From positions 80,402 to 144,401 of the forward strand of contig JAUIER010000003.1 in the NCBI GenBank assembly GCA_030429765.1: a stretch of DNA of 64,000 nucleotides, written 5' to 3'. This document shows, one piece after another, positions 3,680 to 64,000 of this stretch; within the stretch, counting starts at the first letter, position 1, and each line of letters starts with the position of its first letter. The notes below the pieces were generated by a model. The model made no database searches. It was not told the origin of the DNA and worked only from the letters and a program-made list of their open reading frames with translations. Origin of the DNA: a bacterium. Its GTDB lineage: Bacteria > Omnitrophota > Gorgyraeia > Zapsychrales > Zapsychraceae. Made by a program: the position numbers and the translations under genes.

Positions 3680-3680
3680 C

Positions 3681-4703
3681 ATGAAAAATCTACTGGTGGT
3701 GAATGTTAACTGGTTAGGGGATGTGATTTTTTCCTCGCCTGTCTTTCGAGCGTTAAGAAAGTCATACCCTGACGCGCGAATCAGTTGTCTGGCCGTGCCG
3801 CGTGTGCGTGAGATCCTCGAATCCATTCAGGAGATTGATGACATCATCATCTATGACGAGGATGGACGTGACCGCAATCTGCTGTCCAAGTTTAGAATGG
3901 TGGGACGGCTGCGTCGGGAAAATTTTGATGCTGTCTTTTTACTATCGAAATCACGTTCACGCGCGTCGATGATGAAGTTGGCCGGCATTCCGGTCCGCGT
4001 GGGGTATGAAAATAAGAATCGAGGTCGCCTGTTGTCACATATTGCCGCGGGAGATGTGAACAGCATGCATCGAAGTGATTATTATCTAGGCGTTATTGAA
4101 GCGTTTGGTGTGGCTGTGGAAGATCGGAGCACCATCCTTGAAGCACGGGAGGAAGATTGTCACACAGTTCAACAAATGCTTAGCGATCAAGGACGTGATC
4201 CGTCGAAAAAATTGATTGCTCTCAACCCGGGGGGGAATTGGGATCTGAAGCGATGGCCGGCCGAAAATTTTGCGCGGCTCGCGGAACGTTTGAGTACCGA
4301 CAAGGAATTACAATTGGTCTTTACCGGCGCGGATAAAGATCGACCGCTGGTGGAGGATATTTTTCGGACAGCTAGTTTCGAAAGTAAGCCGATCAAACTA
4401 ACCGGACAGATGACTTTAAAGCAGCTGACGGCCTTGATGACATGTCTGGATGTCTTTGTCACCGCAGACTCAGGGCCGCTTCACATGGCCACAAGCGTTG
4501 GGTGCCCGACCGTGAGCGTCTTTGGGCCGACACGTCCGGAAATCACTGGTCCTCGCGGCACGGGACAAAATGTCACACTTCAGAAGGATGTCGGGTGCAA
4601 TCGCCGGGCCTGTTATCACTTGGAATGCCGAAACAATATCTGCATGCAGGCCGTAACCGTTGAGAACGTATATGAAGCCATTAAATCCATCCAGGATTCG
4701 TAG
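3681..4703 (+). CDS. GT9-family glycosyltransferase (ADP-heptose:LPS heptosyltransferase-like)
   Basis: Track ORF 3564-4703 was trimmed to ATG 3681, just after the upstream stop. GT9 hallmarks are LLVVNVNWLGDVIFSSP, VTADSGPLHMA and SVFGPT. Confidence 0.75.
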   Translation: MKNLLVVNVNWLGDVIFSSPVFRALRKSYPDARISCLAVPRVREILESIQEIDDIIIYDEDGRDRNLLSKFRMVGRLRRENFDAVFLLSKSRSRASMMKLAGIPVRVGYENKNRGRLLSHIAAGDVNSMHRSDYYLGVIEAFGVAVEDRSTILEAREEDCHTVQQMLSDQGRDPSKKLIALNPGGNWDLKRWPAENFARLAERLSTDKELQLVFTGADKDRPLVEDIFRTASFESKPIKLTGQMTLKQLTALMTCLDVFVTADSGPLHMATSVGCPTVSVFGPTRPEITGPRGTGQNVTLQKDVGCNRRACYHLECRNNICMQAVTVENVYEAIKSIQDS

Positions 4704-5664
4704 AATTCTGATTATTTCATTGTCGAATATCGGTGATGTGATCTTGACGCTGCCGGTTGCTGATATATTACGCCGTGATTTCCCGGACGCGAAAATCTCG
4801 ATTGTCGTCGGGCCCAAGGTGAAGTCGTTGTTTAAGAATACGCAGGCCTTTGAACATGTGATCCCCTACAATAAACATCAATCTGTCGGCGAGAAGTTTA
4901 AGTGGATCATGAAACTGCGCAAATACCGATTTGATCTGGTGGTGGACTTGAGAAACTCGGCGATTCCATTTTTACTGTCACCCAAATATCGAACGCCTGT
5001 GGATATTTCATCCAAAAAATCCATACATATGCGGCTCAAGCATCTGAAGCGATTACGAACAGTTCATCCATTTACCGATGATCGTGCGCAGCCCCAAAGT
5101 CTTTACGTCTCAGACGACGACCGGCAGTTTGTGGATGAGACGTTGGAAAAATATGTGGGAGCGTCCAAACCTTTCGTGGTGATGTCGCCTGGATCAGCCG
5201 ATCAGGCCAAGCGCTGGTCCAAGAAGGGATTCGCCGAGGTTGCTGAATTCCTGACGCAGGAACACGGATTAAAAACCGTCTTCGTCGGTGATCGGGAGGA
5301 TCGGCAGGTTGTGCAGGCGATACGCAAACTTATGGACAGCGAACCGGTGGATTTATGCGGCCGCACGACGCTGATTCAAACAGCCGAGATTGTCCGTCGC
5401 AGCCGGATGGCTTTGGTCAACGATAGCGCTGTGCAACATTTGGCCAGTTATCTGGATGTGCCGGTGTTGGCCATTTTTGGCTATACCGATCCGCTCAAGT
5501 ATGGACCGTGGGGAACCCGCGGCGGATATCTGCAACCCCATGGCGTGGCCGGCAAAACTGAAGGGACGACCGAGGAGCGCGTGGCCTTAATCGAGAGTGT
5601 TCGGCCGGCGGATGTGATCCGCTGCATACAAATGCGCGAATCGGGTGTCAGGTTTTTGTTATGA
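4672..5664 (+). CDS. GT9-family glycosyltransferase (heptosyltransferase-like)
   Basis: The track start 4660 is a TTG and the first ATG is at 4672. Motifs: ILIISLSNIGDVILTLP, LVNDSAVQHLA, AIFGYT. Confidence 0.7.
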   Translation: MKPLNPSRIRRILIISLSNIGDVILTLPVADILRRDFPDAKISIVVGPKVKSLFKNTQAFEHVIPYNKHQSVGEKFKWIMKLRKYRFDLVVDLRNSAIPFLLSPKYRTPVDISSKKSIHMRLKHLKRLRTVHPFTDDRAQPQSLYVSDDDRQFVDETLEKYVGASKPFVVMSPGSADQAKRWSKKGFAEVAEFLTQEHGLKTVFVGDREDRQVVQAIRKLMDSEPVDLCGRTTLIQTAEIVRRSRMALVNDSAVQHLASYLDVPVLAIFGYTDPLKYGPWGTRGGYLQPHGVAGKTEGTTEERVALIESVRPADVIRCIQMRESGVRFLL

Positions 5665-6707
5665 CGCAGACGTTCAAGAATATTTTAATCATCCGGACGG
5701 ATCGTATCGGAGATGTGGTCCTGACAACACCATCGATCAAGGCGGTGCGAAAGGCCTATCCCGACGCTCGACTGTGTGTTCTGCTGGCACCTTTAACCTA
5801 TGATCTGCTAAACGGGATTGGTTTTGTCGACCGGCTATTCGTCGATGATCGACGGGGAGAGCACGCGGGAAATCTAGGTTTTTTCAAATTGGTCCGAAAA
5901 ATTCGACGGGAACGATTTGACCTGGTGATTAATTATCACACCAAGAAGCGTACAAATTTGATGGCGTTTCTGGCGGGCGTTCCGTACCGGTTGGGTTATC
6001 GCAACAACAAATGGGGCTTTTTATTGAATCATCCCGTCGAAGATTATCGTCATGAAGGTTTAAAGCACGAGGCCGCCTACTGTTTAGACCTGCTTAATGA
6101 GATCGGCATCAGCGATGCTGAATTAACTCCCGAAATCGCCTTGCTCGACGAATCCGTGGCCTGGGTCGATGATTTTCTGGGGCTTAACCAGATTGACGCG
6201 GGGGACAAGCTGATCGTGATTCATCCGTCGGCCAGCGATCCGGCCAAACAGTGGCCCGCCGAAAATTTTGTTGAACTGATCAACACCCTGGGAACGCGCA
6301 ACGCCGAACTCAAATTTGCCGTGATTGGAACGGCGGCCAATAGATCGCTGGCTGCTTCGATCGTCAAAGGCACCCGGCCGAAGGTGCTCGACACCACGGG
6401 TCTGCTGTCACTTAGCCAGATGGTCGCGCTCCTCAAGCGGGCCGATCTGCTGATATCCAATGATTCAGGGCCGGTTCATGTGGCCGCCGCCCTTCAAACA
6501 CCGGTGATATCCATCTTTACCCGGAATCAACCCGGGATCAATCCCACACGTTGGCAACCGCTTGGAGAGAGGTCGGCGTACGTAAGTGTTGATGCCGATC
6601 ACTCCAAATCCTTCAAAAAAGCCCAGAATTACGACCCAAAATCCATGCAACCGATTGCCGTTCAGACGGTTTTGCAAGCAGTTGACGCCCTTTGTAAACT
6701 ATGCTAG
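5661..6707 (+). CDS. GT9-family glycosyltransferase (heptosyltransferase-like)
   Basis: 348 aa with an ATGA overlap on the upstream stop. Motifs: ILIIRTDRIGDVVLTTP, ISNDSGPVHVAAA, SIFT. Confidence 0.75.
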   Translation: MTQTFKNILIIRTDRIGDVVLTTPSIKAVRKAYPDARLCVLLAPLTYDLLNGIGFVDRLFVDDRRGEHAGNLGFFKLVRKIRRERFDLVINYHTKKRTNLMAFLAGVPYRLGYRNNKWGFLLNHPVEDYRHEGLKHEAAYCLDLLNEIGISDAELTPEIALLDESVAWVDDFLGLNQIDAGDKLIVIHPSASDPAKQWPAENFVELINTLGTRNAELKFAVIGTAANRSLAASIVKGTRPKVLDTTGLLSLSQMVALLKRADLLISNDSGPVHVAAALQTPVISIFTRNQPGINPTRWQPLGERSAYVSVDADHSKSFKKAQNYDPKSMQPIAVQTVLQAVDALCKLC

Positions 6708-7798: not shown

Positions 7799-8530
7799 AT
7801 GCGCACGATTGCGGTAATACCGGCACGGTATCATTCCACCCGTTTTGAAGCCAAGGTTTTGGCGATCATCGACGGGAAACCGATGATTCAGCATGTGTAC
7901 GAACGGACGCGGCAATCCCAGCGCGTCGATGATGTGATCATTGCGTGTGATCATCCGGACGTTCAGCAAGCGGCCGAAGCGTTCGGCGCGCGAGCGGTGA
8001 TGACCGATCCCAACCATGCGTCGGGATCCGATCGAATTGCTGAAGCCGTGAAAAACATTTCGTGTGACGTGGTCGTCAATGTTCAGGGAGACGAACCGCT
8101 GATCCAGCCGCAAGTGATCGATGCATTGGTCGACGCGATGTCCGGCAAGGACAATCACGTGATGGCCACGGTGGTGACCGCGATCCGTGACGATGCCGAG
8201 ATTGATGATCCGAATGTGGTCAAAGCTGTTATCAATGCAAAAGGCGAGGCGCTCTATTTTTCGCGATCCCGTATTCCGTATCAACGGAATGCCGTGGGCC
8301 AGATATACTACAAACATTTAGGCATTTATGCCTACACCAGGGAATTTCTTTTAACGTACACACAAATGCCCAAGTCTAAACTGGAGCTCACCGAATCGCT
8401 CGAGCAGCTGCGGGTCTTGGATGCCGGATACCGAATCAAAACCATCGAGACGGACCAATCATCAATCGGCGTTGATTGTCCCGAAGATTTAGTCAAAGTT
8501 GAAGCCGCCATCAGGAAGCAGGAGTCATGA
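7799..8530 (+). CDS. kdsB: 3-deoxy-manno-octulosonate cytidylyltransferase (CMP-Kdo synthetase)
   Basis: 243 aa. Motifs: AVIPARYHSTRF, KPMIQHVYE, NVQGDEPL. The ATG directly follows the upstream TAG. Confidence 0.9.
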   Translation: MRTIAVIPARYHSTRFEAKVLAIIDGKPMIQHVYERTRQSQRVDDVIIACDHPDVQQAAEAFGARAVMTDPNHASGSDRIAEAVKNISCDVVVNVQGDEPLIQPQVIDALVDAMSGKDNHVMATVVTAIRDDAEIDDPNVVKAVINAKGEALYFSRSRIPYQRNAVGQIYYKHLGIYAYTREFLLTYTQMPKSKLELTESLEQLRVLDAGYRIKTIETDQSSIGVDCPEDLVKVEAAIRKQES

Positions 8531-47588: not shown

Positions 47589-48949
47589 AATCCAAGTCAA
47601 AAGAGACATCGAAAACCACCGCGGCCAAAAGCAAAAGCTCGGCGGAGAAAAAGGCGGATAAGCCCAAAGAGGCCAACGGCGCCAACGGGACGGATTCGAT
47701 TGATATCACCAGTTTGAAAGAAATGAAGATGACCGAGCTGAACAATTACGCCAAAGATCTGGGGATCACCGGAGTCAGCGGTCTTAAGAAGCAGGACTTG
47801 ATCTTCAAGGTCCTGCAGGCGCAGGCGGAACGTGAAGGTCAGATGTTCGGCGGCGGCACGCTTGAAATTCTATCAGAAGGATTTGGTTTTCTACGCAGTT
47901 CCAATTACAACTACTTACCGTGTCCGGATGACATTTATATCTCTCCGTCGCAGATCCGTCGTTTTGATCTGAAAACCGGCGACAGTGTCAGCGGACACAT
48001 CCGGCCGCCCAAAGAGGGTGAGAAGTATTTCGCGTTGCTTAAAGTGGAAGCCGTGAACTTTGAAAACCCGGAAAAATGCAAAGACAAAATATTTTTTGAC
48101 AACTTAACGCCGCTATATCCGAAAGATCGCATCCTGCTTGAAACCGAGCAGAAAGAATTGTCGACGAGGATTATGGACATGCTGACACCGTTGGGTAAAG
48201 GTCAGCGGGCGCTGATCGTGGCTCCGCCTTTCAGTGGTAAGACGGTTCTCCTGCAGAAAGTGGCCAACTCCATCATGCAGAATCAGCCGGATGTCATCCT
48301 GATGGTGCTGTTAATCGATGAGCGTCCCGAAGAGGTGACGGATATGCAGCGTAACGTCAAGGGCGAGGTCATCGCTTCAACATTTGATGAGCCGGCCGAA
48401 CGTCACGTACAGGTGGCGGAGATGGTCCTGGAAAAAGCCAAGCGTTTGGTGGAGCATCAACGTGATGTCATTATTCTCTTGGACAGTATCACCCGATTAG
48501 CGCGCGCCTATAATACGGTTGTGCCACATAGTGGAAAGATTCTCTCCGGTGGGGTTGACTCCAACGCGCTTCACAAGCCAAAGCGATTCTTTGGGGCCGC
48601 CCGGGCGGTTGAAGAAGGCGGCAGTCTGACCGTTATCGCGACGGCCCTGGTTGAAACAGGCAGCCGTATGGATGAAGTCATCTTCGAGGAATTCAAGGGG
48701 ACGGGTAACATGGAGCTGCAGCTTGACCGGAATCTGTTCCAGCGCCGTATCTATCCGGCGATCGATATCAAGCGTTCCAACACGCGTCATGAAGAGTATC
48801 TGATCCCGGATGACGATCTGCAGCGCATCTGGCTGCTGCGCAAGGCCATCAATGATCTCAATTCAGCCGAGGCGATGGAGCTGTTGATCGACCGTATCGG
48901 AAAGTACAAATCAAACAGGGAATTTCTGGATAATCTGAATAATATGTAG
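47555..48949 (+). CDS. rho: Transcription termination factor Rho with a Lys-rich N-terminal extension
   Basis: 464 aa. Motifs: [14 protein letters not shown], Walker [31 protein letters not shown]. The first ~45 aa are rich in K, S, T and A. Confidence 0.95.
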
Positions 48950-49010
48950 TCGAGATTCATAAGGCATTCGATACCAGTCATTTACGCTTTAAATTGCTGT
49001 TTGTAATAAA

Positions 49011-49038
49011 TTGTACTATTTGAGATTTGTGCTATAAT
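49011..49038 (+). promoter_or_regulatory. Sigma70-like promoter candidate upstream of rpmE
   Basis: TTGTAC (49011-49016), a 16-nt spacer, then the consensus TATAAT (49033-49038). Confidence 0.35.
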
Positions 49039-49096
49039 TGACAGTCTTAACGACAGGAGTTTAACTAAGGTGTATTCATAACCGAGGAGTAATTTG

Positions 49097-52527: not shown

Positions 52528-53091
52528 ATGATCTTAATGATAGACAACTACGATTCATTCACCTACAACCTGGTGCAGTATTTCGGTGAGCTGGGCGCGA
52601 ATCTCAAGGTGTACCGTAATGATATGATTTCGATTGAGGACATCCGCCGGATGCGGCCCAAAAAGATTGTGGTGTCGCCCGGGCCGAGTAATCCGGACCA
52701 TGCCGGGATTTCATTGGACGTCATCGACACGTTTAAAGGCAAGATTCCGATCCTCGGGGTATGTCTCGGACATCAATGTATGGGGCAGGCCTTCGGCGGC
52801 AAGATCATCCGGGCCAAAAAATTGATGCACGGTAAAACTTCAAAAATTAAACACGACGGCCAAGATTTATTCAAAGGCCTGGACAATCCGTTTGAAGCCA
52901 CGCGGTACCATTCGCTGGTGATCGAGCGCAAAAGCTGTCCCAAGTGTTTTGAGATTACGGCCTCGAGTGAAGACGGTGAGATTATGGGGATCCGTCATAA
53001 AGACTATCCGATGTGGGGCGTACAGTTTCATCCCGAGTCGATTTTGACCAAGGCGGGCAAACCGCTCTTGGGTAATTTTCTCAAACTATAG
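52528..53091 (+). CDS. trpG: Anthranilate synthase component II / aminodeoxychorismate synthase glutamine amidotransferase
   Basis: 187 aa. Motifs: MIDNYDSFTYNL, catalytic GVCLGHQ, QFHPES. It lies directly upstream of trpD. Confidence 0.85.
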   Translation: MILMIDNYDSFTYNLVQYFGELGANLKVYRNDMISIEDIRRMRPKKIVVSPGPSNPDHAGISLDVIDTFKGKIPILGVCLGHQCMGQAFGGKIIRAKKLMHGKTSKIKHDGQDLFKGLDNPFEATRYHSLVIERKSCPKCFEITASSEDGEIMGIRHKDYPMWGVQFHPESILTKAGKPLLGNFLKL

Positions 53092-53103
53092 GATGGGATC
53101 CAA

Positions 53104-54129
53104 ATGAGCCATACGATTCGTTCATACGTGGACAAGATCCACAATCATGAGAATTTGACGCAGGACGAGATCGAAGTTGTCATGCAGGACATCATGTCCG
53201 GCGAGTCCAACCGCGAAGATATTGCCAGTTTTTTGTTGGCGCTGCGCGAGAAAGGCCCGACGATCGATGAGATTACCGGGGCGGCCCGGATTATGCGCCG
53301 GCATCTGGTCGGCGTGAATACCGTACACAAAGATATTCTTGATACGTGCGGGACCGGCGGTGACAAGACCAATACGTTCAATATCTCGACGGTGACGGCC
53401 CTGGTGGTGGCCGGAGCGGGGGCGGTCGTGGCCAAGCACGGAAATCGGTCGGTGTCGAGTAAGTGCGGTTCGGCCGATATTCTCGAAGCGCTCGATGTCA
53501 ATCTGGATATGGATACCTCCCGTCTGAACGCGTGTCTGGACGAAGTCGGCATCGCTTTTCTGTTTGCGCAAAAACTGCATCCGGCGATGAAGAATGTCGC
53601 GCCTGTGCGTAAGGAATTGGGTGTCGAGACGATCTTTAATCTGCTTGGGCCGTTGACGAATCCGGCCAATGCCACGCATCAGATGATCGGTGTGTACGCG
53701 CGTAAATATGTCAAGCCGATGGTGCAGGTGTTGAAGAACCTGGGATCCAAACGGGCATTGGTTGTGCATGGCGCGGACGGACTGGATGAGATCACAACGA
53801 CCGACAAGACATTTATCTGTGAGTACAACGGCGAGGAGATTTTTTCGTACGATATCGATCCCGACGAATTAGGCATACCGTTCGCCAAGCCTGAAGATCT
53901 CAAAGGCGGTCATCTGGAAGACAATGTCAGAATTGTCCGCGAGATCCTCGACGGAGCGCCCGGACCGAAAAGGGATATCGTTCTGTTGAATTCGGCGTAC
54001 GCGTTGTATATCAGCGAGAAGGCGGCGAATATTGAAGATGGTTTACAGATGGCGCGTGATTCGATCGACAGTGGAAAGGCCAAGGCCAAGCTGGCACAAC
54101 TAAGGGATTTTACCCATGAGCGGACATGA
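53104..54129 (+). CDS. trpD: Anthranilate phosphoribosyltransferase
   Basis: 341 aa. Motifs: [38 protein letters not shown]-like region, LGPLTNPA. Confidence 0.95.
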   Translation: [341 protein letters not shown]

Positions 54130-54907
54130 TTTTCTGCAGGAGATCGTCGAGTACAAAAAAGAATGCAACCGCTTAAAGGCGGAGTACTACACGGCGATTC
54201 GCAACAAGATTGATCTCTCCGAATACTGCCGTTACGGGGTCTTTGCCAAGTCGGTGGGACGCGAAGGGCAGGTTAATCTGATCGCTGAGATCAAGAAGGC
54301 CTCGCCGTCCAAAGGGGTGATCCGTGAGCCGTTTGATGTGCTCGAGATCGCCAAGACATACACCGAACACAAGGCGGCGGCCATCTCTGTTCTCACCGAA
54401 GACAAATATTTTTTAGGACGACCGGATTACGTCAAGAAGGTCAGCGAACAGTTTACGGTGCCGGTCCTGATGAAGGACTTTTTCATTCATGAAAACCAGA
54501 TCTACGAGGCGCTGGTCAAGGGGGCCAGTGCGATCCTGCTGATTTGCGCGATACTCTCCGATGAGCAGTTAAAGCAATTATTGTCGGTGGCGAACGCTTT
54601 GGACCTGGACTGTCTGGTCGAGACGCATGATGAGACCGAGGTCAAGCGGGCGATTGACGTCGGCGCCGAGATCATCGGGGTGAACAATCGCGATCTACAT
54701 ACATTTGAGGTGTCGATGCAGACGAGTCTGGATTTGATCCCCAAGATTCCCCGGGATCGAATCGCGGTCGCCGAGAGCGGGATCCGGACCAACGCGGACA
54801 TTCGGCAGCTCAAAGAGGTGGGGGCCAAGGCGGTTTTAATTGGAGAAACATTTATGCGCGCAGAGGACATCGGCGCCAAGGTTGACGAGATTATGTCAGG
54901 CGGCTAA
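54116..54907 (+). CDS. trpC: Indole-3-glycerol-phosphate synthase
   Basis: 263 aa. Motifs: IAEIKKASPSKG, ISVLTEDKYF, IIGVNNRDL. Confidence 0.9.
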   Translation: MSGHDFLQEIVEYKKECNRLKAEYYTAIRNKIDLSEYCRYGVFAKSVGREGQVNLIAEIKKASPSKGVIREPFDVLEIAKTYTEHKAAAISVLTEDKYFLGRPDYVKKVSEQFTVPVLMKDFFIHENQIYEALVKGASAILLICAILSDEQLKQLLSVANALDLDCLVETHDETEVKRAIDVGAEIIGVNNRDLHTFEVSMQTSLDLIPKIPRDRIAVAESGIRTNADIRQLKEVGAKAVLIGETFMRAEDIGAKVDEIMSGG

Positions 54908-54922
54908 CACGGAGGAAGAGGA

Positions 54923-55537
54923 ATGACGATGAAAGTTAAGATGTGTGGGATTACCAATCATGAAGACGCGCAGAAGGCGGTTTATTACGGGGCCTATGCC
55001 GTCGGATTTATTTTTCATAAAAAAAGTCCGCGCTACGTATCACCGAGTAAAGCGCGAAAATTAATCGAAGGATTGCCGCCGTTTATCGTGCCGGTCGGTG
55101 TCTTCGTTGATCTCAAGGAAAAGGCGGTGCGGGATATCTGCAAGTTCACCCGGATCAAGACGGTCCAGTTTCACGGTGATGAAAAGCCGATCTACTGCAA
55201 GCGCTTTTCCGATTACAAGATCATCAAGGCCTTTCGGGTCAATGACATGTTTGATTTTGTCGGCGTCAAGAAGTACAAGGTCGACGCCTATCTGTTTGAT
55301 ACCTACCAGGAAAATGTCCTTGGGGGGACGGGAAAGACGTTCAACTGGGACCTGCTCAAAGGGCATAAGTTTGATAAACCCGTCATTCTCTCCGGCGGAT
55401 TGACCTCATCCAATGTGGCCGAAGGGATCGCCGCGGTGGATCCGTACGCCGTGGATGTCTCCAGCGGCATCGAGAAGTCGCCGGGGATCAAGGATCCCCG
55501 CAAAATCCGGGCGTTCATGAAGGCCCTGGACGTCTAA
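54923..55537 (+). CDS. trpF: Phosphoribosylanthranilate isomerase
   Basis: 204 aa. Motifs: VKMCGIT, QFHGDE, ILSGGL. An alternative start is ATG 54929. Confidence 0.9.
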   Translation: MTMKVKMCGITNHEDAQKAVYYGAYAVGFIFHKKSPRYVSPSKARKLIEGLPPFIVPVGVFVDLKEKAVRDICKFTRIKTVQFHGDEKPIYCKRFSDYKIIKAFRVNDMFDFVGVKKYKVDAYLFDTYQENVLGGTGKTFNWDLLKGHKFDKPVILSGGLTSSNVAEGIAAVDPYAVDVSSGIEKSPGIKDPRKIRAFMKALDV

Positions 55538-55659
55538 ATCCCCGCACACTATCTGTTTTGTATTGATCCGATGGATCGGTCCGTCGAGGTATCCCGGACT
55601 GTCCCGGACACATTTTTGAAGCATAGTTGAAAGCTACTCATTTGTAATGACTTACAGGC

Positions 55660-55688
55660 TTGTCCCCTGTGGATAACTATGTTATATT
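55660..55688 (+). promoter_or_regulatory. Sigma70-like promoter candidate driving the structured RNA
   Basis: TTGTCC (55660-55665), a 17-nt spacer, then TATATT (55683-55688). The 5' arm of the RNA closing helix starts 6-7 nt downstream. Confidence 0.45.
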
Positions 55689-55693
55689 TGAAT

Positions 55694-55928
55694 TAAGCCG
55701 ATAAAGGTAAACCCGGGGAAACCCGGGGACTTTCGAGTCTTACCGACTTGGAACTGCGCGGTTATGAGGCGCGCGGACAAAACCAACAGACCTAAATTGT
55801 TAACGACTACGAGGCCCGTTCGGGCGTTCAGCGCCGGGGCACACAATCCAAGCAGAAGAGTCTAGGACAAGATGGTGGCTGGGTTGCCGAAGTGCGGTGA
55901 GGGAGACATCCTCATCTTTATCGGCTTA
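55694..55928 (+). ncRNA. Unassigned structured RNA candidate (~235 nt core)
   Basis: The ends pair over 12-15 bp (55694-55708 TAAGCCGATAAAGGT with 55914-55928 ATCTTTATCGGCTTA). Internal hairpins are: CCCGGG-GAAA-CCCGGG (55712-55727, built from the tandem 10-mer AAACCCGGGG x2); CGAGTC/GACTTG (55734-55750); CTGCGCG/CGCGCGG (55754-55776); GCCC...GGCG-TTCAG-CGCC...GGGC (55814-55840); and GGTGAGG/CCTCATC (55896-55916). No credible ORF is present. A promoter lies upstream and a terminator downstream. Confidence 0.45.
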
Positions 55929-55947
55929 TTTTTCTCTCTTACCCATA

Positions 55948-55978
55948 CCGTAAAAACACCCGTTTTTGCGGTTTTTTT
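55948..55978 (+). terminator. Rho-independent terminator
   Basis: CCGTAAAAAC-ACCC-GTTTTTGCGG forms a 10-bp stem with one G-U pair, followed by TTTTTTT (55972-55978). Confidence 0.75.
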
Positions 55979-56006
55979 GTGTCTACGGTGTTGGTTCTGG
56001 TAGAAT
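55977..56006 (+). promoter_or_regulatory. Extended -10 promoter candidate for the two-gene cassette
   Basis: TGgTAGAAT (TG at 55998-55999, hexamer at 56001-56006) with a weak -35 TTGTGT (55977-55982) and an 18-nt spacer. Confidence 0.3.
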
Positions 56007-56105
56007 AGTAGGAATTAACTGCGCGGGGCTTCACGAACTTCCAATCCTGCAGCAGTTTTTCCAGTGTGATTAAGCAAGCAAAATTAAGAAATATTTCGAT
56101 TGTAA

Positions 56106-56492
56106 ATGACTAACAATTCAATATTTTCATTTCCTCCTGATTTTGAAGTGGAGTATAAATTTTTGACAGTGGACGAGGCCGGTAGAAAAACTGGAACTCC
56201 CTTTCAGGGTTACCGGAGCAATTGGCTATATGAAGGGGATGACCCAATTGCCGACGGCATTTATATGATTCATCCTGAATTTCTGGATGAAGACGGAAAA
56301 AGTTTTCAAAAGAATAGGAAGGTTCCTGCAAAAGGCCTGGCCAGAATGGTAGTAGTCAATCCAGCTAAGAGACCTTATCATCAAAAGAAAATAAAAGTTG
56401 GAACAAGAGGTTTTTTTGTCGAGGGAAATCGGAAAGTGGCAATGGCAACCGTAACGAAGGTGCTTGGTTTGCATACCAATAAAACAACTTAG
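56106..56492 (+). CDS. Free-standing EF-Tu domain III-like protein
   Basis: 128 aa. [28 protein letters not shown] and the C-terminal [23 protein letters not shown] align by eye with EF-Tu domain III, as I recall the E. coli sequence. There is no G domain and no domain II. Codon usage looks A+T-rich. Confidence 0.5.
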   Translation: [128 protein letters not shown]

Positions 56493-56542
56493 TAGAAAAT
56501 TCTCATTCCATAACAGGGATAGGATTTTTCAAAGATAATTGA

Positions 56543-57247
56543 ATGACGTATATTAGAATTTTTGCCTTGGTGCTTAGCGTTATTTTAACGGCCGGGTGTG
56601 CTACCGTTGTTCGGGATCAATTACCGGCAGTCCAAAAATTTTCGACATCTGAGGAAGCTTTCAGCGTATACGTGCTGAATCATGGATGGCATACAGGACT
56701 GGTGATCAGGCGTTCTGATATCCCTGACCATCTTTGTCCCGAAAGTGAAGATTTTGCTAAGTATGAGTATCTCGAAATTGGATGGGGCGATCAAGGTTTT
56801 TACCAGGCTCAGAAAATCACTTTGGGTATTACTATCCGGGCGATCTTTTGGCCGTCCAAAAGCGTACTACATGTGGTGGGATTTAATGGGTCAGTTGAGG
56901 CATATTTTGAAACCAGTGATATTGTACGAGTTGATCTTTCGGAACAGGGATTTAACAAAATATGCATGTTTATTCATGAAACGTTCAAGAGGGAGCAGGT
57001 TGATCTACGAGCTTCGTCTATCGGACCGGGTTTGTACGGGGATAGTAAATTCTACAGAGCTCGCGGGAGATACTACTTTCCTAAAACGTGTAATGTTTGG
57101 ACCGCAAGGGCCCTACGTAAAGGTGGTTGTCCGATAACACCTATTTACGCTGTGACATCCGGCAATACGCTGAATCAGACCAAGAAGTTTGGAGTAATTG
57201 TTAGGGAGTTCCTAGAGTCGTATAAAGCTTCAGGTAGAAAAAAATAA
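56543..57247 (+). CDS. DUF2459/TIGR02117-like lipoprotein
   Basis: 234 aa. Lipobox LTAGC. The motifs NHGWHTGLVI, LEIGWGDQGFY and YYFPKTCNVWTARALRKGGCP match my memory of the DUF2459 family. Confidence 0.55.
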   Translation: MTYIRIFALVLSVILTAGCATVVRDQLPAVQKFSTSEEAFSVYVLNHGWHTGLVIRRSDIPDHLCPESEDFAKYEYLEIGWGDQGFYQAQKITLGITIRAIFWPSKSVLHVVGFNGSVEAYFETSDIVRVDLSEQGFNKICMFIHETFKREQVDLRASSIGPGLYGDSKFYRARGRYYFPKTCNVWTARALRKGGCPITPIYAVTSGNTLNQTKKFGVIVREFLESYKASGRKK

Positions 57248-57354
57248 GTGGATGGTCGAAGTCTCTCCAATCTTGAAAGAATTGGTATCAGAAATCCCTA
57301 AAGTAAAGCAGGGCATAAGTTTAGGTCGTAATTCATTATATTAGCGAAGAGGCC

Positions 57355-57399
57355 TGTCCCTTTTCGGGGACTGTCCCCTTTGGGGGAGCCGTTCGGGCT
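57355..57399 (+). other. Cluster of three short GC-rich hairpins between the cassette and the giant ORF
   Basis: GTCCC-TTTTCG-GGGAC (57356-57371), TCCCC-TTT-GGGGG (57374-57386) and AGCC-GTTCG-GGCT (57387-57399). No U-tract follows. They may terminate or insulate the cassette transcript. Confidence 0.3.
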
Positions 57400-57427
57400 T
57401 GCCTATAATACTAATATATCGTATAAT
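57399..57427 (+). promoter_or_regulatory. Sigma70-like promoter candidate for the giant ORF
   Basis: TTGCCT (57399-57404), a 17-nt spacer, then the consensus TATAAT (57422-57427). A second TATAAT lies at 57404-57409. Confidence 0.35.
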
Positions 57428-57477
57428 TAGTGTATTACTGGTTCCCCACCGTAAGCTTTAGTTTCCACCCATAGTCT

Positions 57478-60400
57478 ATGTTGATTTCAATCAAACGGCA
57501 TTTCCGTCATCCGTTGTTTTGCGCGTTGGTGTCGATGCTGACATGTCAGTTATCATTTGCTGTCCCTGGCGTTGCGTCTACGCAAGCCTCGCAGGGAGTG
57601 GCTCTGCCTGAACCCGGCACGCTGGTGATGCCGAGCGCCGATTTTTATGCCCCGGTCCTCAAAGGGGTTCAAATCCATCCCGACCAGCCGTTTCATTTTG
57701 AATTTATTGTCGATCAGGGCGATCAGTCGATTTCCTTAAGCCAACTGGAGGCCGAGTCGTATCGCTTGATCAAATATTTTATGGCCGCCCTGGCCGTGCC
57801 TGAGCAGGACATGTGGGTGAACTTATCGCCCAATGATCATGATCGGGCGATCCCCGACAAATTCGCCCTGACCGCTATGGGACGTGATCTGCTCGCGCAG
57901 GATTATCTGCTCAAACAATTATCGGCGTCGATGATGTATCCCGAACATCGGCTTGGTGAAGATTTCTGGCAACGCGTGCGGCACTTGGCCCATCAACGCT
58001 TGGGCGTGACCGACATTCCCGTCAACACATTCAATAAAGTCTGGATCGTACCCGAACGGGCCGTGGTGTATCAAGACGGATATACCGCGTATGTGTCCGA
58101 AGGCCGGCTCAAGGTCATGCTGCAGTCGGACTATCAAGCCAGCGCATCCAGCCCGATGGGCGCGGGCAATCCCGACGATTCCACCGACCGGTTAGCCCAG
58201 GACATTTATCGTGAAGTGATTATTCCGGAACTGGAGCGAGAGGTGAATACCGGTCGACAGTTTGCCCGTTTGCGCCAGATCTATCATTCGTTGATTCTCG
58301 CGACGTGGTATCGCGAAGTCCTTGAGGACAGTTTGATCAATCAAGTGTATGCCGGACAGAATAAGATCCATGGCATTGAGATCGACGATCCCCGGGCCAA
58401 AGACGCGATCTATCAGCAATACATGGACGCGTTTCGCAAGGGCGTCTACAACTACATCCGCGAAGACTATGATCAATTGAAGGATCAGGTGATCCCGCGG
58501 CAGTACATGTCGGGCGGGATGCAGATCGTGCCGCGGATAGAGATTACCGACGACGCGCGCTCCGTCCGCACGCGCGGAGATCTGGCGATGGTCTCCACGC
58601 AACTGAATCTGCGCGGTGCCAACCGCACGATTGAGATCGCGGCGGATCTCGACGACAGTATCTTTGCCGGGATGCGAAAGAACGGCCGGCCCAAGGTTCA
58701 GTTAACGCATGCGGATCACGCCGAGCTCAAGGGATACCGTCCGGATGGAGAGACGGTCACACTTTTTACCTCACTACGTCAGCGGGTATACGGCCTGGAA
58801 ATTTCCGATGAGGGCGAACTCACGCACGTTTATCCTAACAATAAAAAAGACAAACCGGTGGCTTGGGCCTGGATTCGTGACGACGCCGGCCGGCGGACCG
58901 GAATTGTCGTCGGAGACAAGCGGACGCACGCGTCGCTGGGATACGGAACAAGTGCGGTCAAGATTAACGGGTGGATCGACACGCCGATTATAGCAAGTCA
59001 GCAGCGGCAGGACGCGGCCTTGATCCGCATCGGTCCACAGGCCCTGGGTAAACGACAACTCTTTGCGGTGTTGCCGCCGGATGCGGCCGGCGAAACATTG
59101 GCGGTGCGCTATGAAGACGGTTTTCCGACGGCAGTTCGTCTGAGAGACGGGACCGTTGTTCCTGTTGGTCTGATCCGGAATCAGTATAATCAGGTGATCA
59201 AAGCCACGAACGGTTCGGCCGGTTTTGTTAAGCCGGATCGTGAGACAGCCACCAGCTACGAAAATATCCGAACGGATGCAGAGGGCATAGCGCGTTTGGG
59301 ATTCCGTCTCGAGCGAGTGGCCGACGGGGCCGGCTGGGCCAGTCTCCTGGTTGACCAATCAGTGGTGATCGCTCATGATATTTTTGATCAGCCGCGTCAC
59401 CAAACCTACGGACACGTGATCCGCAATCACCATGATGTCATCATTGCCGCCGCGTGGCGGGAACCCGACCAAGACCAACGGGAGGTAAACCCCAAGCCGT
59501 TGATGATCGTTCGCGATCTCCAAACACACCGGCCGAAGTACTCGGCGGCACCAACCAAATTCAAAGACACCGGCGACGCGATCGTGACCGGACGTCGTTT
59601 ATCGAAACACGGCAAGATTTATATCGGCGGACATTCGCTGAGTTTGGGGGCGACGTATGCCGATGCGCCGGTGGAATTGCTATGGCTGCCCAGCCAGGGT
59701 TATCTGCTGGTCGATGTCTTAAGTGAACGTGATCGTGAGGCGTTTGTGTTTGACTTGAATCGTGACGAAACCGTCACCGCCGAACAGCTAACTCTCGTCG
59801 ACAAATACCTGTCTGAGCTTGGGCTGGAATGGTATCTGGATCCGGCAGAGAAGGCGTATCGTTATGATCTCATCAATGAGTTGATGTCGGATCCGTTGTT
59901 CGCACAGCTGAATTTAAGATTATTTTCAACGCATCCGGCGGATTTACAGACCATTCAGTCTCAGTTGACTGTGCGCCGTCACATGCCGGTCAGGATTTGG
60001 GATCAGGCCCTGGATATCGCCGCCCGACGGATCGATCAATATAAACGCGATTATCCCGATCAGGTCGTCAACGGCAAGATTCCGATGCGGATCAAGCAGT
60101 CGATCATTCGCGATGTGTCGGACGAGGCCTGGTTGATGATCAATGCCGAACGTCCGCTGACGGAGAGCCCATCGGCTCAAATCTTTGAATCGTCGTCAAA
60201 CGAAACCGATGCGGCCATGACCAGCGATGGACCCACGCGGGCTGATATCGAACGGCTGTTCAAGGCGATTCTGGAAATTTACCGGTCCTACGCCGACGGT
60301 GAATTGGAGGACTATCCCACGGCGATGCGCCGGCTGGAGGCATTGGCCGAGCAGACCGCGTCGAATCCGGTCCTGCAGAGTTTTGTCCATGACCGGAAGA

Positions 60401-63400
60401 ATCCCATCCACGTGATTGAGTTCGGACTGGATGGTCAGTTGGTGGCGCGCGATAAGCTCGCGCAGTCCCTTCAGGATGACATCCGCGATATGGAGCTGGC
60501 CCTGGCCGGACTTCGATCGCTCGACGACACCGACCCCGCCCCGGTGACGGATGCGTATCCGGCCGAGATCAAATATTTTGAGTTAATCAATAAAGGACGC
60601 GGTTCGACGGATTCAGATGCCGCGATGGCGGGTATCGATACTTTTGTGGCTGAGCGGATCACACAATTGCAGGACGCGGTGACGGAACGTGAACAGGTGA
60701 CACCCAACACGGTTCGGCATGTCGCGGGGCTTTGGCTAAAAGCCCTCATCCAGGAGTGGGATTACGGCCGGAACATCGTTCACACACGGGCCGAGGCCGT
60801 CGAGATAGGGGAACGCCTGAACCGGGCGTGGAAGGCCGCCGGGTTCGACAAGGTTCGTTCATGGCCGGCGCAGGTGATGCTCATGGGCTCTCTGCAGGTT
60901 TCGGAAGACAAGTACTTTCAATTTGAAGATATGCAGGAGGCCTTGATCGAACATGCCACGCGGGAGGAAAAGATCTTGGCTTACTGGACCAAGGCGGTGC
61001 GCTCTGTCAGTCATCTCAGATATTACGGCAATCATCCGGAAGATGAATTTGAGGATCCGCTCGTCGATCAAACCGTCATTCAGGATACGGCGCGCAAATA
61101 CATCACCTTGCTGCTGGAAGACGCGCCCGAGAAGGCCACTCAAGATCAGCTGTGGGGATTGATCGTTTTGCTCGATCCGTTCATCTATCATCCTGACTTT
61201 TTAATTGATCAGTGGGCCAAGCATGCCTATAAGCAACCCAACGATCATGTCATGACCGCCAAGGTCCTCGACATTCTGAAGGATCTCAACGCGGAACAGC
61301 GGCAGCGATTCCAACAACTCGCCCGACGGGCGTTTGCGATATCGGATGACGAATGGGCGGCGGCTGGATTCCGGTCGCCGTACACAGACTTTATCATCCA
61401 TACCTTTAATGAACGACTGGACCACATGATGACTCAGATGTCGATCAAGTCCTCGAGTGAGTTCAGCGGGGATCACGTGCAGCTGATGGCCCGGTCCGAA
61501 GAATTTTTCGACGCCCATGTGGGATGGTATGCCTTAACGCGCGATCCCAGGGCGGTGCGCGAGATGATGTTCTCCAATAAACGGCATGCCCGTTATCCGG
61601 AGGCCGGTTTTCTGGGGCTGCGTCAGGCCATCGTCAAACGGCGATTGTTCAAGGCGATGGAACAAGATCCGCGGCATTACTATCGACGGGTCTTCGCGCA
61701 TCCATTGCTGGCGGATTCACCTAACTGGGGATTTTTAAGTGAGTTGTTGAGCGACGAGGCGATGATGGCCGATCCCGATGATATGACCGAACAGTTCCGT
61801 CGACGAATTGATCTAGCCATTGCTCAGGTGGGTTATCCTGGAATATCTGTATCCGAACAGGCTGCTCAAGATTTGCTTGCTGACTATGAACAGGGTTTTG
61901 ACGTGACGGAACGGATTGCCATTCCACGGATCAGCGTCTGGCTGATGCGTCACCAGATTCCTGTGTTTCAGTCTTATGAAATGCTAGCGGCCATCCACGT
62001 CGCCGCCGACAAGTGGCGAGCCAATTTCAATCAGACAGTGGAGCTTGAGGTTGGTGCCTTGATGAGCTTTACGAATGTGGTGGGGCTACCGATGTTTGGA
62101 TTTGAAGGATCGTGGACAGATGCGGAAGTGCAGACCGTTCGACGGATTATGGGGTGGTTGGATGGGGAAAAAGTCTCTACATTGAAAGGGTTGCAAGCTC
62201 GATTGTTGACATCTTCGGTAACATTTAAAAAGCGCGGCAGGGGATTCAGAGGCATTGCGGAGATCATACAAGGGATCATGCCGGCCGGTCCCCGTATACC
62301 TGGCGATAGACGCACAAACGCGATTCAGCTCGTCGACATTGATACAAGCTGGTTTACAGGGAATATCACATTCCCGATGATTCAGATTCTCAAGGAATTA
62401 TTGCTGGATCGGACGCAGGACAAGGATGTCATTGATGAAGACTACTTTGACTCACGAATTGCGGTGTTGGCCAAGATACAAGAGTTGTTAGAGCGGCTTG
62501 TCCTTCGGGAGCAGTCATTAATTGAAAACTTTGCGACAGCCTATCGCGCGCAATTGCAGGAAGAGCGTAGAACGTTGTTGTATACATGGCTGACCATGAT
62601 GCGCGGTGACGAAGAAATTTTAGATCTGGAACCTGATGATTTGTCGCACAGATTTACACTTTCAACGGATGATGTTTTGAAGGTATTAAGAGATTACTCT
62701 GAAGAGATCGATGACCGAGATCACGCGATGAAAGCCGGTGAGGCGTTTGAGAACAATCCGTATCATGAACCGCATTTTGATCTGATTGACAATCTGGAAC
62801 TGGCCGAGCGGTCGAATATCGTGATGATCGGGGCGGCGGAAAATCCGCAGGCCGGTTTGGCCTTCGCGATGCGCGGACATCATGTCAGGTCCATCACCAA
62901 GGATATCAAGGGGCCGACCGTGGAGGCGGCGCTGCAGGAGTCACTTGAGGCCGATATTTCCGGTCGGGGCGGACGGTATGTCACCAATCGGGAGACCGAC
63001 TATCTGGATGTCGACATCGACGCCGAATCGGTGGATGTGTATGTGGTGCCGGCGGTGCTCGACGATCCGCGCACCGTGCAGCAGGATTTGATGCTGGATA
63101 AAATGCTGCGCGAATTGCGGCCGGGCGGTCATCTGGTGCTGTCGTTTATCATCAATGCGTCGGGATGGGAGCGCTATGTCGAGCGGTTCGCGGCGTCACG
63201 CGGGTTTGAACTGGAGAAGACGTATGATTATACCGTGTCGGACGCGGCGGTGATCTATCGCGTTGTGCCGGATGCGGCCAGACAGCTGGCCGCCATGGCG
63301 TCGGAGATCGGCGCGGCCAATGATGAGGCCATGCTGGCGTTCAGTGAGTTTGACAACAAGATCGGGATCGATCCATTTTCCGGTCGTTTATCGGTGCTGT

Positions 63401-64000
63401 CCGATGAGCCGGTGTTTGTGCCGGCGTTTGAGTTATGGGCGGTGCGTCACGGTGAGACCGCCGGTAATGTTCAGCGCATCTTTCAAGGGGCGACGGACAC
63501 GTCGATCAATCAGTTGAATCAACGCGGACGCGAGCAGGCCGCAGAAGCGGCGCGCCTGATGTTTGAACAGCTCGAGGCCAAACTCAGGGCCGGTGATCAC
63601 GTTGTTATATTGACCAGTGAGTTCGCGCGGGCGAAAGAGACGGCGCAGGCCTTTGTGGATTTTGTTGAGGCTCAATTGGGGGATGCATCGAACTTAACCA
63701 TCGTCGAAGATGCCGGGGTCAATGAGATTGATTTCGGCGAACTCAACAATCTGTCCGAACAGGATGAGTTAACGGATCGTCAGCGCACGTTTATCGATCA
63801 GTATCGGTATCAGAAAAACGCGCGCGCGAAACCGGCCGGCGGCGAAAGCTATCTGGAATTGACCCAGCGGGTCCACCGATGGCTCAAAGAATTGAATCAG
63901 CGCTACGCGGACCAAACCGTGGTGATGTTTGGTCACGGTACATTTTTATCGGCCGTTCGGATGTTGACGGGGGATACGTCGATGAACGACGCCAGCGGTC
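57478..64000 (+). CDS. Giant secreted multidomain protein, N-terminal >=2,174 aa (3' end outside the window)
   Basis: Hand translation of frame +1 gives TAG at 57472-57474, ATG at 57478, and no stop up to nt 64000. The track lists no frame-1 ORF here because it requires a stop. The N-terminus MLISIKRHFRHPLFCALVSMLTCQLSFAVPGVASTQA is signal-peptide-like. No Shine-Dalgarno sequence is obvious, so the exact start is uncertain. Confidence 0.8.
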   Translation, partial: MLISIKRHFRHPLFCALVSMLTCQLSFAVPGVASTQASQGVALPEPGTLVMPSADFYAPVLKGVQIHPDQPFHFEFIVDQGDQSISLSQLEAESYRLIKYFMAALAVPEQDMWVNLSPNDHDRAIPDKFALTAMGRDLLAQDYLLKQLSASMMYPEHRLGEDFWQRVRHLAHQRLGVTDIPVNTFNKVWIVPERAVVYQDGYTAYVSEGRLKVMLQSDYQASASSPMGAGNPDDSTDRLAQDIYREVIIPELEREVNTGRQFARLRQIYHSLILATWYREVLEDSLINQVYAGQNKIHGIEIDDPRAKDAIYQQYMDAFRKGVYNYIREDYDQLKDQVIPRQYMSGGMQIVPRIEITDDARSVRTRGDLAMVSTQLNLRGANRTIEIAADLDDSIFAGMRKNGRPKVQLTHADHAELKGYRPDGETVTLFTSLRQRVYGLEISDEGELTHVYPNNKKDKPVAWAWIRDDAGRRTGIVVGDKRTHASLGYGTSAVKINGWIDTPIIASQQRQDAALIRIGPQALGKRQLFAVLPPDAAGETLAVRYEDGFPTAVRLRDGTVVPVGLIRNQYNQVIKATNGSAGFVKPDRETATSYENIRTDAEGIARLGFRLERVADGAGWASLLVDQSVVIAHDIFDQPRHQTYGHVIRNHHDVIIAAAWREPDQDQREVNPKPLMIVRDLQTHRPKYSAAPTKFKDTGDAIVTGRRLSKHGKIYIGGHSLSLGATYADAPVELLWLPSQGYLLVDVLSERDREAFVFDLNRDETVTAEQLTLVDKYLSELGLEWYLDPAEKAYRYDLINELMSDPLFAQLNLRLFSTHPADLQTIQSQLTVRRHMPVRIWDQALDIAARRIDQYKRDYPDQVVNGKIPMRIKQSIIRDVSDEAWLMINAERPLTESPSAQIFESSSNETDAAMTSDGPTRADIERLFKAILEIYRSYADGELEDYPTAMRRLEALAEQTASNPVLQSFVHDRKNPIHVIEFGLDGQLVARDKLAQSLQDDIRDMELALAGLRSLDDTDPAPVTDAYPAEIKYFELINKGRGSTDSDAAMAGIDTFVAERITQLQDAVTEREQVTPNTVRHVAGLWLKALIQEWDYGRNIVHTRAEAVEIGERLNRAWKAAGFDKVRSWPAQVMLMGSLQVSEDKYFQFEDMQEALIEHATREEKILAYWTKAVRSVSHLRYYGNHPEDEFEDPLVDQTVIQDTARKYITLLLEDAPEKATQDQLWGLIVLLDPFIYHPDFLIDQWAKHAYKQPNDHVMTAKVLDILKDLNAEQRQRFQQLARRAFAISDDEWAAAGFRSPYTDFIIHTFNERLDHMMTQMSIKSSSEFSGDHVQLMARSEEFFDAHVGWYALTRDPRAVREMMFSNKRHARYPEAGFLGLRQAIVKRRLFKAMEQDPRHYYRRVFAHPLLADSPNWGFLSELLSDEAMMADPDDMTEQFRRRIDLAIAQVGYPGISVSEQAAQDLLADYEQGFDVTERIAIPRISVWLMRHQIPVFQSYEMLAAIHVAADKWRANFNQTVELEVGALMSFTNVVGLPMFGFEGSWTDAEVQTVRRIMGWLDGEKVSTLKGLQARLLTSSVTFKKRGRGFRGIAEIIQGIMPAGPRIPGDRRTNAIQLVDIDTSWFTGNITFPMIQILKELLLDRTQDKDVIDEDYFDSRIAVLAKIQELLERLVLREQSLIENFATAYRAQLQEERRTLLYTWLTMMRGDEEILDLEPDDLSHRFTLSTDDVLKVLRDYSEEIDDRDHAMKAGEAFENNPYHEPHFDLIDNLELAERSNIVMIGAAENPQAGLAFAMRGHHVRSITKDIKGPTVEAALQESLEADISGRGGRYVTNRETDYLDVDIDAESVDVYVVPAVLDDPRTVQQDLMLDKMLRELRPGGHLVLSFIINASGWERYVERFAASRGFELEKTYDYTVSDAAVIYRVVPDAARQLAAMASEIGAANDEAMLAFSEFDNKIGIDPFSGRLSVLSDEPVFVPAFELWAVRHGETAGNVQRIFQGATDTSINQLNQRGREQAAEAARLMFEQLEAKLRAGDHVVILTSEFARAKETAQAFVDFVEAQLGDASNLTIVEDAGVNEIDFGELNNLSEQDELTDRQRTFIDQYRYQKNARAKPAGGESYLELTQRVHRWLKELNQRYADQTVVMFGHGTFLSAVRMLTGDTSMNDASG
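62815..63270 (+). other. Methyltransferase-like Rossmann module inside the giant ORF
   Basis: NIVMIGAAENPQAGLAFAMRGHHVRSI ... VDVYVVPAVLDD ... MLDKMLRELRPGGHLVLSF follows the class I SAM-methyltransferase motif order, but the glycine-rich motif I is atypical. Confidence 0.4.
63412..64000 (+). other. Histidine-phosphatase (phosphoglycerate-mutase-like) module inside the giant ORF
   Basis: ELWAVRHGETAGNVQRIFQGATDTSINQLNQRGREQA, ILTSEFARAKETA, NEIDFGELN, GGESYLELTQRV and VVMFGHGTFL appear in this order. The RHG codons are at 63445-63453. Confidence 0.7.

Follow-up and report, generated by a model that had tools for sequence, protein, structure and literature searches.

Polymorphic toxin/immunity systems share a recognizable signature: a variable C-terminus of the toxin, varied delivery scaffolds, a small downstream gene, and orphan modules (PMC3482391). 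The toxins that bind or modify the elongation factor EF-Tu include Tse6, the CdiA-CT domains of NC101 and EC869, Serratia Rhs2, Salmonella Rhs2 and TreTu (PMC5737660; PMC9825190; bioRxiv 10.1101/2025.10.28.685041; bioRxiv 10.64898/2026.05.10.723254). The subject of the present analysis is ORF128, an open reading frame (ORF) for a protein of 128 residues in a 64-kb stretch of contig JAUIER010000003.1 from a bacterium of the phylum Omnitrophota. This whole stretch is called the window, and all coordinates are positions within it unless a homologous locus (designated L) is named. ORF128 belongs to a previously unannotated family of free-standing beta-barrels that correspond to domain III (D3) of EF-Tu. 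From its sequence relatives and their gene order, it is tentatively regarded as a horizontally acquired orphan immunity-type binding protein of this family, with a chance of being right that falls a little short of even.

Like the immunity proteins of Rhs, type VI secretion system (T6SS) and contact-dependent growth inhibition (CDI) toxins, such as TriTu (for TreTu), CdiI of E. coli NC101 and SciX, some homologs of ORF128 are small, cytoplasmic and encoded directly downstream of an Rhs C-terminal domain, and the D3-like family includes orphan copies. The window copy departs from this layout in having no adjacent toxin. TriTu consists of a five-stranded sheet and two helices (PMC9825190), and SciX resembles CdiI (bioRxiv 10.64898/2026.05.10.723254); the TriTu and SciX folds are unrelated to the D3-like barrel. 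The 2012 survey of polymorphic toxins never mentions EF-Tu or elongation factor (PMC3482391). Because these immunity folds are unrelated and this survey is silent on EF-Tu, an immunity family derived from EF-Tu appears to be undescribed.

The EF-Tu-dependent toxins are delivered by Rhs or CDI proteins, and toxins linked to D3-like genes are likewise found on Rhs proteins. Since EF-Tu-dependent Rhs and CDI toxins are known, it is conceivable that an immunity protein derived from EF-Tu is connected with the partner of its toxin. The linked toxin domain has no detectable similarity to the Tse6, CdiA-CT, Rhs2 or TreTu toxins. The CdiA-CT of NC101 is reported to bind EF-Tu domain 2 only; for TreTu, helix D has been proposed as the anchoring site and D21 of the P-loop as the modified residue (PMC9825190). 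Neither of these two contacts with EF-Tu involves domain III.

Structure of ORF128

The reading frame of ORF128 is intact and begins with ATG. In a BLASTP comparison with E. coli EF-Tu, residues 13-121 match EF-Tu residues 305-394, the whole of domain III, at 30% identity and a pairwise E of 2e-5, and the EF-Tu chains in the PDB reproduce the same aligned blocks. A profile of the family, compared with the PDB using HMMER, gave E values of only 0.1-4, yet 27 of the 28 matches were EF-Tu, at the same position. Aligning the profile with the EF-Tu sequence by hhalign gave a probability of 88% (P 3.3e-6). The Pfam D3 model, GTP_EFTU_D3 (PF03143), does not match ORF128 even at E <= 10, and a match to DUF2973 (E 0.06) is noise.

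The AlphaFold2 model of ORF128, based on an alignment of 44 homologs, has a mean pLDDT of 91.9. It is a beta-barrel that superposes on EF-Tu residues about 300-393. When the model was used as a Foldseek query, the top 46 matches were all EF-Tu, showing that the nearest kin of the domain is bacterial EF-Tu specifically. The predicted structure is decisive for the D3 identity, for which sequence comparison at the scale of databases provides weak evidence. The family descends from domain III of bacterial EF-Tu.

EF-Tu also has a GTPase domain and domain II, whereas the members of the ORF128 family are free-standing. ORF128 has neither of these domains, and the sequence upstream of it is non-coding and RNA-like, with no remnants of either. 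The central part of the protein (residues 47-97) is made up of the strand IYMIHPEF, a lengthened loop, the strand GLARMVVV and a helix, residues 86-95, that carries H92. Relative to EF-Tu D3 there are about 25 extra residues, divided between the loop that follows IYMIHPEF and helix 86-95. K110 of ORF128 aligns with EF-Tu T383 in Met1 numbering, which we take to be T382 of the mature numbering, the residue phosphorylated by Doc.

A first-pass annotation of this DNA had assigned ORF128 to EF-Tu domain III by eye, noting an insertion of about 25 residues in its middle and the lack of the GTPase domain and domain II. Both of the sequence blocks it quoted are reproduced by BLASTP, the insertion is seen as the lengthened loop and the helix, and the length of the ORF and the non-coding sequence before it agree with the missing domains. 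Its structural assignment is thus fully borne out.

The protein family

A search of 5.8 billion proteins returned 44 homologs of 98-163 residues with E values of 1e-11 to 1e-41. Those that are named are all called "hypothetical", and none of the 44 has a precomputed Pfam domain. An exhaustive profile search at E <= 1e-3 extended the family to 490 clusters (50% identity), each counted by one representative; for 327 of them the E value falls below 1e-10. Among the 150 representatives listed, a length of about 125-135 residues predominates. Scans of ORF128 and its homologs against Pfam, NCBIfam, PADLOC and PHROG gave no match to any family model.

The stand-alone proteins of the family, 125-160 residues long, share the two extra segments and have their own start codons. 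Q34, R37, P57, G77 and M81 are invariant, and I55 and E58 nearly so. The most conserved part is the DGIYMIWPEF segment, which includes family-specific residues. In comparison with EF-Tu D3, conservation is thus strongest at positions peculiar to the family.

The probability that ORF128 is a decayed remnant of tuf, or a chance ORF of no function, is virtually nil. Such a remnant would account for the EF-Tu similarity itself and nothing further, and against it stand hundreds of full-length homologs across phyla with conserved family-specific insertions and own start codons, the confident structural model, and an upstream sequence devoid of GTPase or domain II remnants. The first-pass annotation had named degraded tuf fragments as the finding that would overturn its assignment. 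The homologs proved to be of another kind, forming about 490 clusters with starts of their own, and the size of the family, the lengths of its members and their conserved insertions refute the tuf-fragment reading.

Genomes and plasmids with matches belong to Verrucomicrobia, Planctomycetes, Cyanobacteria, Beta- and Gammaproteobacteria, Firmicutes (including Paenibacillus, Brevibacillus, Cohnella and Clostridia), Bacteroidota, Spirochaetes, Hydrogenedentota and Armatimonadota. This mobile and patchy distribution differs from that of EF-Tu, which is universal. Six plasmids of Leptospira interrogans, 65-85 kb in size, carry a homolog with 47.5% identity that is annotated as hypothetical. In one of them, pLIMHP1 (NZ_CP011936.1; L065), the homolog at 48677-49093 lies in an accessory region directly after an RHH-PIN toxin-antitoxin pair.

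In the longer members (185-274 residues) the extensions mostly lack a recognizable domain. P0151 has an N-terminal DUF433, presumably an antitoxin-type domain, fused to the D3-like domain (E 4e-23). The C-terminal tail of P0149 resembles the C-terminal domain of ribosomal protein L7/L12 at E 0.008, below the cutoff, as do P0166 and P0055 by eye. One longer member is likely to be a mis-joined UDP-glucose dehydrogenase.

Linkage to Rhs-type toxins

A derived clade, about 13% of the 187 aligned members, has an N-terminal extension of about 34 residues. Its EGGR loop is changed to DPEL..IKP and its EGxR to VGSK. The genes of this clade are situated 6-125 bp downstream, and on the same strand, of genes for Rhs/YD-repeat proteins or giant cadherin-repeat proteins; in Candidatus Thiodiazotropha endolucinida the upstream protein is a cadherin-repeat giant of 4251 residues that runs off the locus. 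The upstream proteins end in an Rhs DPSG motif, a Gly-rich hydrophobic linker and a common C-terminal domain of about 120 residues that is 54-63% identical between them. This toxin domain has the motif (T/I)DLxRAVxxxEL...P..KQFFH(T/S)..EA..FG...EPGIGPIVTVP...LPAFN..GG. The toxin-linked loci of the derived clade are L046/47, L058-63, L064, L070/71, L072-74, L129 and L160 (L130 is the same contig as L072). In L067-69 only a 55-residue remnant of the toxin domain precedes the D3-like gene, a typical orphan module. The domain is also found in short stand-alone or remnant ORFs (P0195, P0199-P0203, L067).

The main clade, which includes ORF128, has one known pair. P0002 (L079), which is 55% identical to ORF128, keeps the segments EEGGR and VEGPKK, and its gene follows that of another Rhs protein at a distance of 15 bp. 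The C-terminal domain of this Rhs protein is 20-28% identical to the shared toxin domain; its N-terminal half matches the toxin-domain profile with an E of 5e-6 in a single test, and the two have the motif R-x-V-x3-E-L...P...KQF...E...F in common. Two clades occupy the immunity position, and their partners are two subtypes of a single toxin domain, that of 54-63% identity for the extended clade and the divergent one for P0002. At least seven independent loci have a D3-like gene in this position, among them the locus of the closest relative of ORF128, and ORF128 is 47-52% identical to the members of the toxin-linked extended clade.

Matches of toxin-domain profiles (4 and 12 sequences) to PDB entries, for example uS7 and the NMDA receptor, are due to chance, and the single-sequence AlphaFold2 model of the domain, with a pLDDT of 41, is unusable. 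An R...E...S spacing seen by eye is reminiscent of an ADP-ribosyltransferase such as TreTu; it received no support from any tool, and this activity is not claimed.

Because the layout of these loci matches the polymorphic toxin/immunity signature, the family may be taken for immunity-type binding proteins built on the EF-Tu D3 scaffold. D3-like proteins would act alone and stoichiometrically, capturing and neutralizing the toxin domain at the C-terminus of Rhs-type polymorphic toxins, and the outcome would be protection from toxins delivered by neighbouring bacteria. The window copy can be inferred to share the activity of the toxin-linked copies and to protect by direct binding. In keeping with such a role, the family is compact, its members occur as single genes in integron cassettes, and no neighbour family is enriched among 140 flanking ORFs. 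The foreign composition of the window copy, the faster turnover of the insert than of its flanks in the pntA-pntB loci and the DUF433 fusion also speak for it. The first-pass annotation had speculated that ORF128 might be a decoy, an adaptor or an immunity protein; the immunity position of homologs in at least seven loci lends contextual support to the last of these, which is indirect for the window copy because no toxin adjoins it. The co-occurrence with toxins that it proposed to look for is seen for some homologs.

Several observations weigh against the immunity reading. For the L079 domain, the homology to the toxin domain is backed by a score of 12.5 bits across 52 residues. Neither Pfam nor the PDB holds a relative of the toxin domain, and it appears to be rare: two homolog searches found six proteins between them. 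The 64-kb window contains no toxin, toxin remnant or Rhs gene, and the main clade is toxin-linked in 1 of about 100 loci, namely L079. All of the loci were reached through the D3-like gene, and the sample is consequently biased toward finding this gene. The main clade might primarily serve another function, the role in immunity having been recruited from it. Because the toxin domain is rare and only this one main-clade linkage was found, the orphans far outnumber the known toxins.

One such primary function would be that of an accessory factor for translation or tRNA. Main-clade proteins would retain the biochemical use that EF-Tu makes of domain III: they would bind the T-arm of tRNA or aminoacyl-tRNA, or attach to EF-Tu, EF-Ts or the ribosome, and in this way adjust or shield translation during stress. 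The Rhs-linked copies would have been recruited secondarily. Main-clade proteins keep two loops that align with GGRHTP and REGGRTV of EF-Tu, which presumably touch the T-stem of tRNA in published ternary-complex structures. A tRNA-directed role of the main clade is a serious rival because these two loops are kept, although on balance it is unlikely. The family is neutral to acidic, with a median isoelectric point of 5.9 and a net charge of -2, though the window protein has an isoelectric point of 9.6. The best conserved positions (the five invariant residues and the DGIYMIWPEF segment) are specific to the family or belong to the core, rather than to the tRNA loops. The closest relative of ORF128, P0002, which keeps both loops, is found in the immunity position of an Rhs locus, and a translation factor would not usually be mobile, patchily distributed and atypical in codon use.

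Immunity could also operate by mimicry. In that case domain III would have been copied because the toxins must modify this face of EF-Tu or use it as a docking site, the free barrel would be a high-affinity decoy that diverts the toxin from the real EF-Tu, and the orphan copies on integrons, plasmids and small islands would provide portable protection of the translation apparatus. Drawn by analogy with the EF-Tu-dependent toxins, this version is doubtful. It is conceivable instead that a stable barrel was simply reused to plug the active site of the toxin. Because the extended clade has lost both EF-Tu-like loops and yet pairs with a toxin, these loops appear not to be needed for toxin binding in that clade.

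Genomic contexts of the homologs

To survey the surroundings of the homologs, genes were called crudely around 48 non-redundant loci and grouped into clusters, and 140 flanking ORFs were compared with Pfam. The flanking ORFs fall into 103 different families, the commonest of which, GNAT acetyltransferase, occurs three times. No conserved partner gene was found in the 48 loci, and there is no enrichment of defence-island genes among the 140 flanking ORFs. Orphan immunity genes typically occur as lone genes without conserved neighbours; they are found in acquired interbacterial-defence islands and have a similarly wide horizontal spread.

The family is mobile, being found on integron cassettes, plasmids and codon-atypical islands. 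In L003-L006 the D3-like gene (P0025) is part of an array of small ORFs on one strand, beside an IntI-type tyrosine recombinase (4144-5130). Canonical attC sites, imperfect palindromes of the form RYYYAAC...GTTRRRY, lie directly before (7930-7996) and after (8443-8515) P0025; the gapped attC scan gave 8 matches in 767 kb of shuffled sequence. The adjoining cassette encodes a TIR_2 domain. In a Pseudoalteromonas array (L016) the D3-like gene forms a cassette by itself, with one attC copy at 5861-5960 and the other at about 6346-6462. The homologs in these two unrelated arrays thus resemble other integron cassettes, each consisting of a single promoter-less gene between attC sites, whereas the window copy has no detected attC-like site.

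Elsewhere the D3-like gene is inserted tightly behind housekeeping genes. It is found inside operons, with gaps of 11-36 bp, between pntA and pntB (L001/2, L090, L091, L120), between moxR and DUF58 (L075-78) and after cyanophycin synthetase (L144/145/147); in the window it comes after trpF. In the pntA-pntB loci the inserts are 51% identical, in comparison with 78-80% for the flanks, a contrast that points to rapid evolution or to a hotspot of replacement. A ParE toxin-antitoxin pair is inserted right beside the D3-like gene in L076/77.

These contexts bear on another explanation, that the barrel is a decoy or sensor that binds a phage protein exploiting or attacking EF-Tu, and so provides one-gene defence or counter-defence that travels on integrons and plasmids. 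A single-gene integron cassette next to a TIR_2-domain cassette, the Leptospira plasmid copy by the RHH-PIN pair, the L076 copy by the ParE pair, and a mobile gene with fast turnover in places would all suit such a role. It is nevertheless distinctly unlikely. The family has no PADLOC or PHROG match and no homolog in 50,697 phage records, and its neighbours show no enrichment of defence islands. A Foldseek comparison with viral structures found giant-virus translation GTPases and one weak match to an uncharacterized phage protein of 91 residues (E 0.012).

The ORF128 locus

In the window, the genes rho, prfA, prmC, murA, trpG, trpD, trpC and trpF are followed by a non-coding stretch of 568 nt and then by ORF128 (Table 1). 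Between about 56000 and 57600 the GC content is 0.39-0.46, as against 0.52-0.58 on either side, in agreement with the first-pass annotation, which had described the cassette as richer in A+T than its surroundings. The GC content at third codon positions (GC3) is 0.35 for ORF128 and 0.40 for the DUF2459 gene that follows it, as against 0.64-0.70 for the trp genes and for a giant ORF downstream. Because of their low GC and atypical GC3, ORF128 and the DUF2459 gene probably constitute a small horizontally acquired island, and the latter gene appears to have been acquired together with the former. The island is flanked by the trpGDCF cluster and an RNA-like element on one side and by the giant ORF, which encodes a probably secreted protein, on the other.

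Table 1. Coordinates of the features; those preceded by a locus number refer to that locus
Feature	Position	Strand	Basis or remark
ORF128, free-standing EF-Tu domain III-like beta-barrel protein	56106..56492	+	128 aa, pI (isoelectric point) 9.6
First D3 block, residues 12-46	56139..56243	+	Corresponds to EF-Tu 305-337, with GGR(H)TP loop and GYRPQF strand
Family-specific part, residues 47-97	56244..56396	+	Alignment, model secondary structure, gaps relative to EF-Tu
Last two D3 strands, residues 98-121	56397..56468	+	Match EF-Tu 371-394
Likely independent RNA gene or leader	55660-55985	+	Promoter-like site, fold, terminator
DUF2459 / TIGR02117-like neighbour gene	56543..57247	+	234 aa; 50 bp after ORF128
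A+T-rich codon-atypical island with ORF128 and DUF2459 gene	55990..57450	.	Composition, GC3; boundaries approximate
Example operon insertions of D3-like genes	L001 8001-8387; L091 2768-3136; L075 2597-2986; L145 about 3470-3840		
Toxin domain	L047 3540-4100; L058 6310-6873; L064 6418-6984; L070 2756-3277; L072 397-954; L079 about 1360-1690		

The gapped scan found no attC-like site in the window, nor did the repeats of 55400-57600 include one, and the stretch of the window from about 40 to 64 kb showed no recombinase. The short G+C-rich motifs GGACTGTCCC and CCGTTCGGGC occur on both sides of the island (55596-55605, 57351-57377, 55816-55825 and 57389-57398); they are too short to be called attachment sites or mobile-element repeats. 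The genes trpG, trpD, trpC and trpF are contiguous (52528-55537), and trpB and trpA do not come next. The island may have been inserted into the distal trp operon or have replaced part of it.

The RNA-like element upstream of ORF128 begins with a promoter-like sequence, TTGTCC-17-TATATT with a TG, at 55660-55688. The predicted transcript of about 290 nt is highly structured, is closed by a long-range stem of 16 bp (55691-55706 with 55916-55931) and has a minimum free energy of -109 kcal/mol (z -3.7). An intrinsic terminator with a T-run behind it is found at 55947-55972, and near 56000 there is an extended -10-like sequence, TGgTAGAAT. No Rfam family matches it at the gathering score; below that threshold there are matches to c-di-GMP-I-GGC (25 bits, 55697-55748) and to the trpB motif (28.5 bits, 55896-55983). 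The weak trpB leader match extends over the terminator, immediately ahead of the A+T-rich island.

The neighbour of ORF128 matches DUF2459 with a Pfam E of 3.9e-40, and its match to NCBIfam TIGR02117 is below the cutoff. The N-terminus of the protein, as read from the sequence (..LTAGC), is lipoprotein-like. ORF128 and this gene are close together on the same strand and both have an atypical composition, and they are closely preceded by a promoter-like site, a structured RNA and a terminator. This arrangement would fit a role restricted to the locus, in which ORF128 works with the DUF2459 protein, or is controlled by the RNA or acts on it; the first-pass annotation had raised links of ORF128 to DUF2459 and the RNA. 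Such a role is very improbable. DUF2459 is absent from all the other loci searched, the RNA element has no match in 80 other loci, and no neighbour family is conserved; neither of the two proposed ties recurs.

The giant ORF (57478-64000, + strand) has more than 2174 codons and runs past the end of the window. Its product has a signal-peptide-like N-terminus and almost no recognizable domain except a histidine phosphatase domain, His_Phos_1 (residues 1986-2161, E 1e-28).

Implications

EF-Tu is among the best-studied proteins, yet about 500 clusters of free copies of its domain III lack an entry in Pfam, NCBIfam, PADLOC or PHROG, and RefSeq names the members of the family hypothetical. The family supplies a label for a recurrent orphan cassette in the annotation of integrons, plasmids and metagenomes.

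The sequence comparisons point to a putative new immunity-type family of unusual origin and to a putative, previously uncatalogued Rhs toxin domain. The association of two clades with two subtypes of this uncharacterized domain provides a new candidate toxin-immunity pair. It also raises the question of whether an immunity protein can evolve by copying part of the cellular partner of a toxin, a question that is timely now that several T6SS and CDI toxins are known to need EF-Tu. If mimicry were true, the family would be the first case of immunity proteins that arose from a domain of the protein which their toxin targets or uses as a cofactor.
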